NCBI GenBank assembly: GCA_964517275.1
Contig: CAZFBL010000002.1
Coordinates: 1 to 62,382 of the forward strand
DNA: 62,382 bases
Direction of reading: 5' to 3'
Source of the DNA: an uncultured Candidatus Saccharibacteria bacterium
Lineage (GTDB): Bacteria > Patescibacteriota > Minisyncoccia > Portnoybacterales > UBA2143
Shown here one piece after another: positions 52,366-58,610 of this stretch (within the stretch, counting starts at the first letter, position 1; every line of letters begins with the position of its first letter). The position numbers were made by a program, and so were the translations under genes. Under the pieces are notes generated by a model. The model searched no databases. It saw nothing but the letters and a program-made list of their open reading frames with translations, and had not been told where the DNA came from.

Positions 52366-52632
52366 TCATTTTTTCAAGCCTAATTTTTTAATCAACTTCT
52401 TATAGCGTTTTTCGTCTTCTTTTTTTAGGTAATCCAAAAGGCGGCGCCGTTTGGAAACCATTTTTAAAAGACCCCGCCGCGAGTGATTATCTTTAGGGTG
52501 TTTTTTTAAATGTTTAGCTAACTCTTCTATCTGTTTGGTAAATATGGCAGTTTGGACCTCGGCCGAACCGGTGTCCTTGTCATGAGTCTTGTACTCTTTA
52601 ATTACCTTAGATTTCTTTGTTGGTTTTAACAT
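52366..52632 (-). CDS. rpsO: 30S ribosomal protein S15
   Basis: [37 protein letters not shown]. Confidence 0.98.
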
Positions 52633-52672
52633 ATTATTGTCATTCTAAGTGAAGCGAATAATCTTTAAAATT

Positions 52673-52701
52673 ATTCTAACAAAAAAAATAAAAAAATGCA
52701 A
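52673..52701 (-). promoter_or_regulatory. Promoter of rpsO-NYN-pnp
   Basis: TTGCAT-N17-TAGAAT. Confidence 0.6.
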
Positions 52702-52727
52702 CTGGGGAAAACATAAATCACAAAAAA

Positions 52728-52755
52728 ACCGCCCAGTTAATTTTAACCGGGCGGT
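52728..52755 (-). terminator. Terminator after the subtilase gene
   Basis: ACCGCCC...GGGCGGT stem with U tail on the minus strand; homologous to 55767-55798. Confidence 0.7.
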
Positions 52756-52802
52756 CCTGGCTTACGCCAGATTGCCTCTTTTTTTGCGACTATCTGAGTC
52801 AG

Positions 52803-54980
52803 CTACCTGTCAGATGCCGTGTTAATAAAGCATCCTCCTCCGTCTCCGCCTCCGCCTCTGCTTTTAACTGAAGAAGACAAAGTGGTTAATCTCTTGTCAT
52901 TGCCATAGCTTGTTCCTTTGTCATTTCTGGCGACCATTCGGAAATGATAGGTCGTCCCCGGATTCAATCCGGCAAGCTCAGCGCTGACTGGCACTACGCT
53001 CGTTCCTGAACCAGTCTCTGTTTCAGCTGTACTCGAGCCGTAACCGGTAGTTAGACCATACTCAAAGTAGTAAGCAGCTTCCACTTTGCCGTTATTAGGG
53101 TTAACTGTACCATTAAGAGTGGCCGAGTTGGCAGTCACTAAAGTAGCGCTGCCGGTAGTCGCAATAGGTGAATTTATTAGAGAGAGAACAGCTTTATAAG
53201 CATTAGCTCTTCCGTTAGTAGCCACCTTGCCGATTAAGGACGGAACAACATCTACATTGTCCTCTATGATTTCCTTTATCTCCAGATTGCTTAAGCCGGA
53301 ATCAAATGCTTGAATTAACAAGCAAAGACCGAGCAGATGTGGAACAGCCATCGAAGTACCGTCCATAAAGGCGTATTCATCGCCATCAAAAATATCCGAG
53401 TGGACGGTAAATTTCAGATCGTCAAAATAAAAGCCGTCTTCAGTAACGGAGGAATCTGTGGACAGGCGGAATCTGAAATAGATAGTAGATTCGCCGTCAA
53501 AATCTGCAAGGTCGATAATCAGAGGAATCCACATTCCAGCGGACGAACCGGAGAAATATCCACTATACCAATTCAGCAAATCATCAGAGGCCTCAACGTA
53601 CAACCTGTCGCGATTACGCTCGCAGGCTCCATTAATTTTAAATCCAACTATCACGCCACTATACGAAGAGAAGTCCAGAGGACCAATTCTGGCCCAGGAA
53701 TCAGTATCGTTCTGATAATTCCCAAACGGACTGTCGGTCAGTGAATGGGGACTGCTCCAAAATTTACTAGAGGTAATTCCCCAAGTATTGTTAATCCCGC
53801 CGGTTGTCCAGCCGGACATATTCCCGTCATCAAAATCATCATCCCAGATGACCGGCCTTGATGGGACAGTACTGTAAACATTCACTCCCGGTCCGGCCAA
53901 ATCCACGCTGGCTGCTCCGTAATTTGAGAATCCGGCCAGCTCATCATTTTGGCCGGTGGCGGCTACAGCTATGATATTTGGACAATCATAACTGGCCGGA
54001 TAGTGGGGACTATCGTCATTGTCGTTAGCAGAATTTCCAGCCGAGCAAACAACTACCGCCGAAGAAGCCTCAATCGCCTCTTTAAAGAACTGGCTAAAAC
54101 CATCGCCGCCAAAACTCATATTTATGGCTGTCAGCCGAACCTGAAGCGCATTAGCGTATTCAACCGCCTCAATAATATCCGAAATCCATCCGCTGCTACT
54201 GGCATCCAAGACTCTAATCGGAACTATCCTGGCTTTCCAGCAAACTCCGCTTAACCCGTAAGCGTTGTTTCCTTCCGCGGCCGCTGTGCCGGCTACATGA
54301 GTACCGTGTCCCGCGTAATCCATAGAGTCGTTATCATTATCGACAAAATCCCATCCATGAACGTCATCAACATATCCATTACCGTCATCGTCAAGCCCGT
54401 TGCCGGGTATCTCATCTGGATTGGTCCAGATATTATTTGATAAATCAGGGTGGTTGCAATCAATCCCGCTATCCAGGACGGCGCTGATGACTGCCTGACT
54501 GCCGGTACATTGAGAACATACGCCCCAAGCCTCGGGAAGGTCCATATCAGCATCAGCCGCGCCGGTCGTCCCGTTCACTTCCTGACCGCTATTGTGCAGT
54601 CCCCACAACTTGGAAAAATCGGGATCATTAGGAACGACATCGGCGGAATAACGATAATTCGGCTCGGCATGCACTACATTGGGACTTTTGTCATAAACCG
54701 CCAAGGCCTCCTCCACGCTTAACCCGGGAGGAAGCTTGACCAATTGGACTCCGCTTTTAAGGGTTTTGGTGGCTCTAAAGTCATATTCTTCCTGAAAATA
54801 CATGGCCGCCGCTGCCCGAACTGGAGCCCGGTACTTTACTAACACCTGACCGGCTTTGTAATCCGGACTAACAATCTGATTGTCAACATGGCCATCGGCC
54901 ATACCCGCAAAGGCAGGCGTTCCTATGAAGATAAGGACTACAGCCAGAAACCAACCAATAAGAATCTTCGTCTTTTTCAT
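52803..54980 (-). CDS. Secreted S8 (subtilisin-like) serine protease with prodomain, inserted beta-sandwich, FN3-like domain and a truncated CFI-box-CTERM-like tail
   Basis: Signal peptide; triad VLDSGID, GHGTHVAG, GTSMA; oxyanion SAGN; tail GGGGDGGGCFINTA. Confidence 0.92.
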   Translation of the reverse strand: MKKTKILIGWFLAVVLIFIGTPAFAGMADGHVDNQIVSPDYKAGQVLVKYRAPVRAAAAMYFQEEYDFRATKTLKSGVQLVKLPPGLSVEEALAVYDKSPNVVHAEPNYRYSADVVPNDPDFSKLWGLHNSGQEVNGTTGAADADMDLPEAWGVCSQCTGSQAVISAVLDSGIDCNHPDLSNNIWTNPDEIPGNGLDDDGNGYVDDVHGWDFVDNDNDSMDYAGHGTHVAGTAAAEGNNAYGLSGVCWKARIVPIRVLDASSSGWISDIIEAVEYANALQVRLTAINMSFGGDGFSQFFKEAIEASSAVVVCSAGNSANDNDDSPHYPASYDCPNIIAVAATGQNDELAGFSNYGAASVDLAGPGVNVYSTVPSRPVIWDDDFDDGNMSGWTTGGINNTWGITSSKFWSSPHSLTDSPFGNYQNDTDSWARIGPLDFSSYSGVIVGFKINGACERNRDRLYVEASDDLLNWYSGYFSGSSAGMWIPLIIDLADFDGESTIYFRFRLSTDSSVTEDGFYFDDLKFTVHSDIFDGDEYAFMDGTSMAVPHLLGLCLLIQAFDSGLSNLEIKEIIEDNVDVVPSLIGKVATNGRANAYKAVLSLINSPIATTGSATLVTANSATLNGTVNPNNGKVEAAYYFEYGLTTGYGSSTAETETGSGTSVVPVSAELAGLNPGTTYHFRMVARNDKGTSYGNDKRLTTLSSSVKSRGGGGDGGGCFINTASDR

Positions 54981-54996
54981 TTCTTCCTCCTTTTTT

Positions 54997-55347
54997 CTAG
55001 TTGATGTTAACCATATAGTTCGGTTCTGCCTGGAGTACTTCCGGACATTCCCGTAACTGTTTTGCCATCTCTTCCACCGAATCTCCAGCCAGAATTTCCA
55101 TTAAATAAAGGTTTTTGGGTTGAGAAATCACCTTTACAGTCTTCAGCTCTAATTTTTCCTGGATATTGCTTATAGCTTGTTCGCTGGTTTTATCATGAAA
55201 TTTTACCAGAACCTGTTTAGCTGCATAATTCTCTCTTTCTCCGGTTGGTTGAACTCCTGTTTGTTGATCATGACAGCCAAACAGAGACACCGTAAAAGCC
55301 AGGAGAAAAAGAAATAGTAAAATAATTTTTTTGCGGTCTAATTTCAT
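54997..55347 (-). CDS. Lipoprotein consisting of a stand-alone subtilase prodomain (I9-like)
   Basis: Lipobox LFGC; YAAKQVLVKF...SVEE...AEPNY matches the downstream protease prodomain YKAGQVLVKY...SVEE...AEPNY. Confidence 0.8.
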   Translation of the reverse strand: MKLDRKKIILLFLFLLAFTVSLFGCHDQQTGVQPTGERENYAAKQVLVKFHDKTSEQAISNIQEKLELKTVKVISQPKNLYLMEILAGDSVEEMAKQLRECPEVLQAEPNYMVNIN

Positions 55348-55593
55348 AATTTTCGTCCTTTCTTGCCTATATTTATTTTGAGTCTAATCTCATAAACCAA
55401 CCTTTCCTAAAAAGATAGATTCTTAAGACCAAAGCATGAATCGTCTTTTTTGTCTTTATCTATAACTGATTTTCTATCTGACTAATTTGAGTATCTTTAT
55501 TTAATTTTCAAACAACTAAAAAACAAACTAACCCTATCAGGCTATTTTGTCAAGCCCGAACCTTGTTTAAATCAAAACACCGAGTCATTTTTT

Positions 55594-55664
55594 GCGCGTC
55601 CGCTATGACCCGAACCTGGATTAACTGATTAAGAGCCAGTTACCCTAAGCCAAGCTTCAGACTT
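55594..55664 (-). pseudogene. Degenerate tRNA-Lys(CUU) copy
   Basis: Anticodon arm AACTGG-CTCTTAA-TCAGTT intact; CCAGGTTCG shared with the tRNA-Lys at 56090; T and D stems broken. Confidence 0.55.
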
Positions 55665-55766
55665 TATGCAGAACACAAATGTTTAATCTTTGTAGACCAT
55701 CCTAAGTCAATCGCAACAGAAAAATAAAGAGAGTAACCAGGAAAAACGAAAATCACAGAAAAAACA

Positions 55767-55798
55767 GGGCTGTCCAGCTAATTTTAACCGGACAGCCC
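55767..55798 (-). terminator. Terminator after the 72-aa membrane protein gene
   Basis: GGGCTGTCC/GGACAGCCC stem. Confidence 0.7.
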
Positions 55799-55802
55799 CA
55801 GC

Positions 55803-56021
55803 TTACATTTTTTGAAGAAGCGATAACAAAAGGATAGTCTCTGAGATAAAACCAACTAAACCTGCTACGGAGAAAGCAAGGCCGCCAAGGCAAAAAGTAA
55901 CCACGGCCTCGGCATCACTAAACGACTTACATTTAACAGCCTTATACAATAAGTAAATTCCAAGAGCAAAGCCAGCCAGACAAATAAGCATGAGTACAAT
56001 GACGCAGGCTATCGCTATCAT
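55803..56021 (-). CDS. Small two-TM membrane protein
   Basis: 72 aa, two hydrophobic helices, SD AAGGGGG, own terminator. Confidence 0.6.
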   Translation of the reverse strand: MIAIACVIVLMLICLAGFALGIYLLYKAVKCKSFSDAEAVVTFCLGGLAFSVAGLVGFISETILLLSLLQKM

Positions 56022-56089
56022 ATCAACCCCCTTAATCTTCAGGATTAAATTTTAAAACAACACTCAAACTTATATTAATTATCATCTCT

Positions 56090-56166
56090 TGGTGCGCCCA
56101 CCAGGACTCGAACCTGGAACCAATTGCTTAAGAGGCAACTGCTCTGCCGAATTGAGCTATGGGCGC
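56090..56166 (-). tRNA. tRNA-Lys(CUU)
   Basis: GCGCCCA/TGGGCGC acceptor, loop CT-CTT-AA, GTTCGA T-loop, encoded CCA. Confidence 0.95.
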
Positions 56167-57910: not shown

Positions 57911-57947
57911 CCGAATGAAAGGTCGTAAAAAGAAAGGAGATAAAAAA

Positions 57948-58229
57948 ATGTTAGCCCAATCACCCTTAGACCTTAAAAAAGTCCCTAAAAAAGATTTAGA
58001 CAAAGAAATTCTGCGTCTGGGTATGATTGCTGAACTGGACGCGGTTAATCTGTACGAACAACTGGCGGCCATGACTCAAAACAGGACAATGAAAAGAGTT
58101 CTCTTAGATATTGCCAAAGAAGAAAAAACTCACGCCGGCGAGTTTCAGGCTTTACTTCTAAAAATAGACAAGGAGCAAGTTAAAGAATTGAAAGAAGGAG
58201 AGAAAGAAGTCAAAGAATTAGCCAGATAA
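57948..58229 (+). CDS. Ferritin-like protein of the encapsulated-ferritin (EncFtn/Flp) type
   Basis: EILRLGMIAELDAVNLYEQ...DIAKEEKTHAGEF diiron motifs; SD AAAGGAG before the ATG at 57948. Confidence 0.85.
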   Translation: MLAQSPLDLKKVPKKDLDKEILRLGMIAELDAVNLYEQLAAMTQNRTMKRVLLDIAKEEKTHAGEFQALLLKIDKEQVKELKEGEKEVKELAR

Positions 58230-58232
58230 AAG

Positions 58233-58610
58233 ATGACTGAAATAAAACAGATATATAAATGCAATATTTGCGGCCATCTTATCGAGGTTTTACATGCCGG
58301 AGCAGGCCAGCTGGTTTGTTGCGGCCAGCCGATGGAATTACTCAAAGAGAAAATCGAAGACGAGGGATTAGAAAAGCACGTGCCAGTCATTGAAAAAACC
58401 GAACAGGGGATTAAGGTTAAAGTCGGTTCAATCCCGCATCCAATGGAAGAAAAACACTATATTGAATGGATAGAATTAATCGCTGACGGCCGGGCCTACC
58501 GGAAATTTCTGAAACCCGGTCAGCCAGCCGAAGCTGAATTCTGCCTTAAGGCGGATAAAATTAAAGCTCGTGAACACTGCAATATTCACGGCTTGTGGCA
58601 ATCTAAATAG
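58233..58610 (+). CDS. dfx: Desulfoferrodoxin (two-iron superoxide reductase)
   Basis: YKCNICG...LVCCG, EKHVP, HPM, HYIEWI, CNIHGLW. Confidence 0.95.

Follow-up and report, generated by a model that had tools for sequence, protein, structure and literature searches.

In a genome of an uncultured Candidatus Saccharibacteria bacterium (GTDB lineage Bacteria; Patescibacteriota; Minisyncoccia; Portnoybacterales; UBA2143), a 116-residue protein composed of a membrane-anchor signal and a single subtilase prodomain is encoded directly upstream of an S8 subtilase, which carries a signal peptide and a complete prodomain of its own. The window analyzed here covers positions 1-62,382 (forward strand) of contig CAZFBL010000002.1 of assembly GCA_964517275.1, and its relevant features are collected in Table 1. 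We propose that the small protein is probably an envelope-tethered, product-mimicking subtilase inhibitor, which would act in trans on the protease encoded next to it.

The small protein is related to the protease both in sequence and in predicted fold. A BLASTP alignment with the N-terminus of the protease covers 104 residues at 32% identity (E 2e-10) and takes in the motifs QVLVK, SVEE and AEPNY, which an earlier note, made by reading the DNA, had already described as common to the small protein and the propeptide of the protease. Likewise, both proteins match PF22148 (Fervidolysin N-terminal prodomain) above its gathering cut-off of 21 bits, the protease with 41.5 bits and the small protein with 42.1 bits (E 1.2e-10; residues 29-110, profile positions 3-81 of 81), and no match of the small protein to PF05922 (Inhibitor_I9) was obtained in the Pfam scan at E<=1. 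In the AlphaFold2 (AF2) model, a signal helix and a disordered linker precede a folded domain of beta-alpha-beta-beta-alpha-beta topology over residues 45-110, with a predicted local distance difference test score (pLDDT) of ~90, strands at residues 45-50, 68-75, 80-85 and 104-110 and helices at residues 56-66 and 91-99. The best matches to this fold in the PDB are the PC1/3 prodomain bound to furin, pro-subtilisin E and the subtilisin BPN' prosegment, with E-values of only ~1e-3 because the small fold is common. The description of the 116-residue protein in the earlier note as one prodomain plus a membrane anchor is thus upheld by BLASTP, PF22148, the AF2 fold and the lipoprotein-type signal, and the protease gene does start 16 bp downstream, both open reading frames (ORFs) lying on the minus strand.

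The N-terminus of the small protein, MKLDRKKIILLFLFLLAFTVSLFGC, displays a K/R-rich start and a 14-residue hydrophobic core followed by L22-F23-G24-C25. Across six orthologues L22, G24 and C25 are invariant, while elsewhere in the signal and in the linker evolution is nearly neutral, with a ratio of nonsynonymous to synonymous substitution rates (dN/dS) of 0.7-1.0. Lgt is encoded in the genome, designated G000 (PF01790, 79 and 72 bits), and the strict lipobox pattern retrieves three candidate ORFs in the whole of it.

The small gene comes first and the protease gene follows on the same strand in a different frame; given the short spacer and the terminator located after the protease gene, the two look like one operon. 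The prodomain part of the small gene has a dN/dS of 0.19-0.50 and the protease of ~0.2, and the cis prodomain of the protease is complete and evolves under purifying selection no different from that on the other parts of the enzyme. In a set of 61 related small genomes, three (G000, G002 and G010) carry an orthologue of the small gene (71-76% identity), and these three, and no others, also carry one of the protease (76-78% identity), the pair being absent from the other 58; the co-occurrence check suggested in the earlier note therefore reveals a co-inherited pair, and no S8 match at E<=1e-10 was detected in 53 of the 61. The earlier note had also allowed for a broken paralog, and the homology of the small protein to the N-terminus of the adjacent protease is indeed what would be expected if the ORF were a remnant of a duplicated protease gene, or else a functionless ORF arisen by chance. 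Nevertheless, the low dN/dS of its domain, a lipobox invariant in the orthologues, a 16-bp gap too short for any catalytic-domain remnant, a genome of just 0.59 Mb and a family of 265 cluster representatives with conserved length and chain end leave such a reading with a negligible chance, and on this comparative evidence we regard it as effectively refuted.

That family was delimited by an exhaustive profile search of 1.84 billion representatives (E<=1e-3), which yielded the 265 cluster representatives matching the stand-alone prodomain. Nearly all of the best 150 of the 265 matches are proteins of 80-210 amino acids with the domain at the extreme C-terminus, and a lipobox is present in at least 91 of the 118 full-length members. 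A typical member consists of the lipobox, a low-complexity linker of ~30 residues and the prodomain, with the signature Y.PGE[IV]LVKF..GT....I..IQ..L.L.TIR..S.PNLYLMKI.DGSSVE.....L....EV.Y[AS]EPNY followed by a short tail. The family profile retrieved spurious repeat-protein matches only from the PDB sequences, therefore no close relative has a solved structure, and no description of this prokaryotic family was found in the searched literature. In the databases its members are named "hypothetical protein" or, wrongly, "S8 family serine peptidase", the latter being the NCBI name of P0155 (MGW8208020.1), a 132-residue member devoid of a catalytic domain; one JGI record calls a member "uncharacterized lipoprotein YajG". 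Two members, P0006 and P0029, harbor two tandem prodomain units within one small protein.

The gene arrangement is shared across phyla. In a neighborhood survey of one-genome-per-species contigs, with loci fetched by means of a 10-sequence alignment and one frameshifted protease excluded, 13 of 15 stand-alone genes are followed on the same strand by an S8 gene at a distance of -23 to +30 bp; of the other two, one lies at a contig end and one has no S8 gene within 5 kb. Each of the downstream S8 proteins possesses its own signal peptide and prodomain. The hosts are mostly metagenome-assembled genomes of Desulfobacterales, Syntrophobacterales and other "Deltaproteobacteria", together with one archaeon, and judging from these loci the cassette is a widespread module, not special to the organism studied here. 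A further prodomain-like gene was noticed in G001, a genome of the same genus, where L015:4835-5203 encodes a membrane-anchored protein of 122 amino acids scoring 20.8 bits against PF22148, just below the cut-off; G001 lacks any S8 match at E<=1e-10, no protease gene lies near this locus, and the protein may be an orphan, possibly directed at a protease of another organism.

The earlier note took the small protein for a copy of the "own" prodomain of the protease, a view that does not hold, as it belongs to an old and separate stand-alone lineage. Core-type trans proteins score 128-184 bits against the family profile, in contrast to 23-77 bits for cis prodomains, including the adjacent ones. 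The 13 core trans domains form one group in a tree of 87 prodomains, with a single long-branch intruder among them, and eleven of their cis partners form a separate clade with sub-groupings that mirror those of the trans group. The mirrored topologies indicate that the two genes have long been passed on together, and a recent duplication of the neighbor's own prodomain, considered as the source of the small gene, is ruled out for this lineage by the profile scores and the tree. A second type of stand-alone protein was also observed (L032:5956-6318, L057:267-608 and L036:5688-6011), of 107-120 amino acids and with a signal ending in ..FQDAC, which in the prodomain tree is sister to the cis prodomain of its own downstream protease. 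For the L032/L057 type, a recent duplication of the neighbor's prodomain is thus upheld. On this branching the same gene arrangement has arisen a second time, independently and more recently, which suggests that the arrangement is selected for.

The position at which the chain ends is conserved as well. Of 134 members, 69 have a tail of 5 residues after EPNY and another 37 have one of 6-7 residues. When the small protein was compared by hhalign with the 77-residue BPN' prosegment, residues 90-113 aligned without gaps to prosegment residues 51-74 at a probability of 9%, a low-probability match whose register puts the C-terminal N116 on BPN' Tyr77, the P1 residue of the autoprocessing site. In the crystal structure of deseasin MCP-01, residue 1 of the chain aligns to protease residue 114, that is, EPNY+5, and in the AF2 model of the protease the last prodomain strand runs to residue 112 and confidence drops thereafter. 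Taken together, the hhalign register, the MCP-01 chain start and the AF2 model place the end of the free protein within 1-2 residues of the expected cis cut. In fungal stand-alone I9 inhibitors the C-terminal loop spans P9-P1 and makes no prime-side contacts (bioRxiv 10.64898/2026.05.05.722857), and a chain end near the cis cut site is the hallmark of that class.

Based on these observations we hypothesize the following sequence of events. The small protein would be exported and lipid-modified by Lgt at Cys25, and a flexible linker of ~15 residues would hold it on the outer face of the cell membrane. The secreted subtilase would fold with its own cis prodomain and then cut it off; once the cis prodomain is degraded, the tethered prodomain would recapture mature enzyme still present at the producer's surface, its sheet packing on the catalytic domain and its C-terminal tail occupying the non-prime subsites like a bound product. 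The enzyme would consequently be silent at the producer's own envelope and become active only once away from it. The earlier note had likewise proposed a membrane-tethered immunity or inhibitor protein, and a tethered inhibitor stays the best reading, given a free prodomain with an anchor encoded by a functional and co-inherited gene, even though the supposed origin from the enzyme's "own" prodomain had to be abandoned; for the further suggestion that the protease is possibly used against a host, no evidence was obtained.

Several points weigh against a tethered inhibitor of this kind. The hhalign probability against the BPN' prosegment is low, the P1 register of the protein's end is uncertain by 1-2 residues, and the family has no fixed C-terminal residue (N, Q, H, Y, D and R all occur), an unusual situation for a P1 position. 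Phe at lipobox position -2 falls outside the canonical set [LVI][ASTVI][GAS]C, and LspA was not found in the 98%-complete genome, either by the PF01252 profile or by a motif scan, so that the small protein may keep its signal peptide as an anchor and not become a mature lipoprotein; with or without signal-peptide removal, it would be membrane-tethered. In addition, prodomains supplied in trans are often temporary inhibitors that the protease later degrades.

Prodomains are also folding catalysts, and the small protein could alternatively be a trans-acting, membrane-bound foldase or maturation factor that folds or stabilizes the protease on its exit from the Sec channel. The membrane-anchored lipase-specific foldase Lif and the lipoprotein PrtM of the lactococcal PrtP offer parallels, and a membrane site by the export point, a tight operon with the small gene first and strict co-inheritance would all suit such a role. 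Furthermore, the stand-alone I9 proteins of yeast and Pleurotus have been reported to be chaperones too (bioRxiv 10.64898/2026.05.05.722857). Nevertheless, the protease retains an intact cis prodomain that is as constrained as the rest of the protein, hence folding help is already supplied in cis and a second folding template seems redundant, and the conserved chain end near P1 fits inhibitory binding, although it is compatible with chaperoning. We therefore consider a foldase unlikely.

A role as a docking or hand-over receptor, which would store the mature protease at the envelope or present it to a secretion machine, is suggested by the company that these domains keep in relatives. GspC and GspD genes come after the cassette in L021 and after the stand-alone gene in L043, and genes of the type II secretion system (T2SS) lie upstream in L036. 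In T2SS clusters the GspD secretins of L035, L047, L088, L096 and P0146 end in one or two prodomain-like domains, that of P0146 matching PF22148 with 97.6 bits, and S8 genes share these clusters with the prodomain-fused GspD genes. The tail of the protease points in the same direction. Many partner proteases of the Desulfobacterota and Nitrospirota relatives end in a Gly-rich CFI-box plus a transmembrane segment or in a CFI-box-CTERM domain, and L053 and L068 match NF041770, whereas the window protease, the only one in its genome to bear the CFI-box, a putative sorting motif, has neither a full CFI-box-CTERM domain nor a downstream transmembrane helix; its isolated 27-residue tail scores 17.5 bits against NF041763 (CFI-box; cut-off 15.9), and only 6 residues follow CFI before the chain ends (..CFINTASDR), in G002 and G010 likewise. 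Having lost the post-CFI-box transmembrane helix found in its Desulfobacterota relatives, the protease could have the lipoprotein as its only tether. Against docking, binding in the active-site cleft would silence the enzyme anyway, so that the two roles overlap; the window shows neither a secretin fusion nor a link to a T2SS; and the trans-type domain occurs in none of 300 genomes of 0.5-1.2 Mb drawn evenly from the same phylum (E<=1e-6), which gives no sign of a general role there. A dedicated receptor is in our opinion improbable.

As a tethered inhibitor, the small protein can be compared with several known systems. The potempins PotA-PotE of Tannerella forsythia are lipoproteins of 98-132 residues encoded directly upstream of, and co-transcribed with, secreted prodomain-bearing peptidases; PotC inhibits the S8 subtilase mirolase, and potempins protect the outer membrane of the producer (PMC9890683). 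Their scaffold is an OB-fold or an eight-stranded beta-barrel, from which a loop reaches into the cleft in a standard or bilobal mechanism (PMC9890683). Gene order, size, anchor and presumed logic are alike in the pair described here, with its 16-bp gap, common strand and shared terminator; in contrast to potempins, which are unrelated to prodomains, the small protein has the predicted prodomain fold and would bind by its C-terminal tail, and potempin inhibition is proven, whereas here it is inferred. The potempin system is the closest proven counterpart in logic and gene layout. With the MEROPS I9 inhibitors (yeast PBI2, Pleurotus PoIA1/2, Trichoderma TrI9 and plant SPI-1) the small protein shares a free prodomain fold, a gene separate from the subtilase and, putatively, a chain end near P1, the register of which is uncertain by 1-2 residues. 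Those inhibitors are eukaryotic, soluble in the cytosol or vacuole and unlinked to the gene of their target, while the small protein is prokaryotic, lipid- or membrane-anchored and operon-linked.

Sequence family and fold are those of cis prodomains (fervidolysin-type PF22148; BPN' and E prosegments, 1SPB and 3WHI; PC1/3 on furin, 9FID), and both kinds have a last strand V-x-Y-A-E-P-N-Y followed by a short tail. Unlike cis prodomains, the small protein has a separate gene, its own signal peptide and lipobox and a clade apart, is never covalently joined to the enzyme, and belongs to a family with the distinctive signature I..IQ..L.L.TIR..S.PNLYLM.I. Finally, Spi, which is a homologue of the SpeB propeptide, the staphostatins and AprI/Inh of serralysins are co-encoded inhibitors acting in a compartment through which the protease passes. 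Their genes likewise lie beside the protease gene, and Spi too is a propeptide homologue, but they target cysteine or metallo proteases, have other folds, reside in the cytoplasm or periplasm, are encoded downstream and bear no lipid anchor. Staphostatins have been described as co-encoded self-protection inhibitors (PMC7863939). The small protein thus joins two known ideas, that of stand-alone I9-type inhibitors and that of lipoprotein inhibitors co-transcribed with secreted proteases.

The protease itself matches Peptidase_S8 (PF00082) with 158 bits, and its Pfam matches to MAM-like and FN3-like domains are weak. In an alignment of 22 relatives D170, H225, N316 and S543 occupy columns that are invariant or nearly so, and therefore the Asp-His-Ser triad and the oxyanion Asn are intact. 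The AF2 model (mean pLDDT 77) displays the signal helix, the prodomain at residues 41-112, the split catalytic domain, the beta-rich insert and a C-terminal beta domain, and the closest solved structure is that of the collagenolytic S8 deseasin MCP-01 (PDB 3VV3). It is the only S8 protein encoded in the genome, in which the two prodomains of this cassette are the only copies. Assignment to dentilisin PrcB/PrtP or to the mycosins was rejected on NCBIfam scores of 85 against a cut-off of 300 and 95 against 279, respectively. Anti-phage defence was likewise discarded, as PADLOC does not match the small protein and gives only a generic subtilase match to the protease, and both proteins carry export signals.

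The cassette resides in a small genomic island. The corresponding locus of G003, a relative without the pair, reads tRNA-Arg, tRNA-Lys(CTT), 72 bp, rpsO, NYN and pnp, and comparison with it identifies each island repeat as a duplicate of the native spacer that separates tRNA-Lys from rpsO. The tRNA-like fragments upstream of the small gene, one of which (55591-55620) shares 77% identity with the tRNA-Lys 3' end, are probable integration scars. The cargo between tRNA-Lys and the small gene varies, being a 72-residue membrane-protein ORF in the window, nothing in G002 and a 202-residue ORF without a Pfam match in G010-type contigs (L097:4947-5555). No integrase or other mobility gene is present in the island, the membrane-protein ORF being its only further reading frame, and its base composition does not stand out. 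Since the trans-type domain is absent from the 300 genomes of the same phylum, the cassette was most likely acquired horizontally; on this distribution we consider it probably gained by the present genome, and the cassette is an old mobile unit. The stand-alone family is richest in Desulfobacterota, and the prodomain tree weakly nests the window protease with Syntrophobacterales-type partners; the base of the catalytic-domain tree does not resolve the source. Elsewhere in the window, downstream of the gene for the CCA-adding enzyme, an ORF of 125 amino acids with CxxC Cys pairs (58233-58610) and one of 104 amino acids (57915-58229) were read by eye as desulfoferrodoxin-like and rubrerythrin/ferritin-like, respectively; they would be oxidative-stress genes, not part of the protease cassette, and the support for this is a weak Pfam EncFtn-like/Rubrerythrin match on a syntenic ORF of L097.

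Table 1. Features of the protease cassette, its island and related loci (window positions unless a locus is named; residues are those of the respective protein).
Feature	Position	Strand	Details
Stand-alone prodomain gene, predicted lipoprotein, 116 aa	54997-55347	minus	ORF, BLASTP, Pfam, AF2
Small protein, signal peptide	residues 1-25	minus	lipobox LFGC; Cys25 codon 55273-55275
Small protein, linker	residues 26-40	minus	low confidence, AF2
Small protein, prodomain	residues 41-116; 55000-55227	minus	ends AEPNY-MVNIN
Intergenic spacer, 16 bp	54981-54996	minus	Shine-Dalgarno GGAGG; AAAAAGGAGGAAGAA before protease ATG
S8 subtilase gene, 725 aa	52803-54980	minus	ORF, Pfam, AF2
Protease, signal peptide	residues ~1-26	minus	
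Protease, own prodomain	residues 41-112; 54645-54860	minus	
Protease, split catalytic domain	residues ~117-375 and 533-600	minus	D170, H225, N316, S543
Protease, beta-rich MAM/jelly-roll-like insert	residues ~385-530	minus	
Protease, FN3-like domain	residues ~605-700	minus	
Protease, Gly-rich tail with CFI-box	residues 709-725; 52806-52856	minus	sequence GGGGDGGGCFINTASDR
Intrinsic terminator closing the two-gene operon	52725-52758	minus	15-bp stem, then T run
Island, ~3.4 kb	52640-56089		between tRNA-Lys(CTT) and rpsO
Right-hand direct repeat, ~85 bp	52685-52765		terminator and rpsO promoter spacer
Left-hand direct repeat	55720-55806		73-82% identical to right copy
Second terminator	55765-55800		inside left-hand repeat
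tRNA-3'-half-like degenerate fragments	55555-55570 and 55591-55620	minus	upstream of small gene
Two-helix membrane-protein ORF, 72 aa	55803-56021	minus	in island
tRNA-Lys(CTT)	56090-56166	minus	island insertion point
rpsO (ribosomal protein S15)	52366-52632	minus	native neighbor on the other side of the island
Prodomain-fused GspD genes	L035:3916-6234, L047:4633-6228, L088:3925-6243, L096:1696-3852		Nitrospirota-type loci

Few secreted proteases have been studied and used as much as the subtilases, whose control is commonly attributed to the cis prodomain. It is possible, and we suggest it only tentatively, that envelope-tethered "second prodomains", whether lipid-anchored or fused to T2SS secretins, form a general and unrecognized latency system for the secreted subtilases of prokaryotes, in which a detached prodomain would succeed the cis prodomain after autoprocessing and keep the mature enzyme in a product-like complex at the envelope until it is exported or released. 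Horizontal transfer would carry the cassette as a self-contained unit even to ultra-small, episymbiont-type genomes, in which it would provide the only subtilase along with its safety catch. If true, a large bacterial and archaeal family of tethered free prodomains would constitute a second layer of subtilase control and tie protease latency to lipoprotein sorting and type II secretion, and it would be a source of natural, cognate and tight inhibitors for enzyme production. It would also explain how cells with an exposed membrane survive their own proteases. For the bacterium studied here, the cassette provides the only subtilase of the genome and is a recent accessory gain, which makes it a candidate factor in feeding on, or interacting with, its surroundings.

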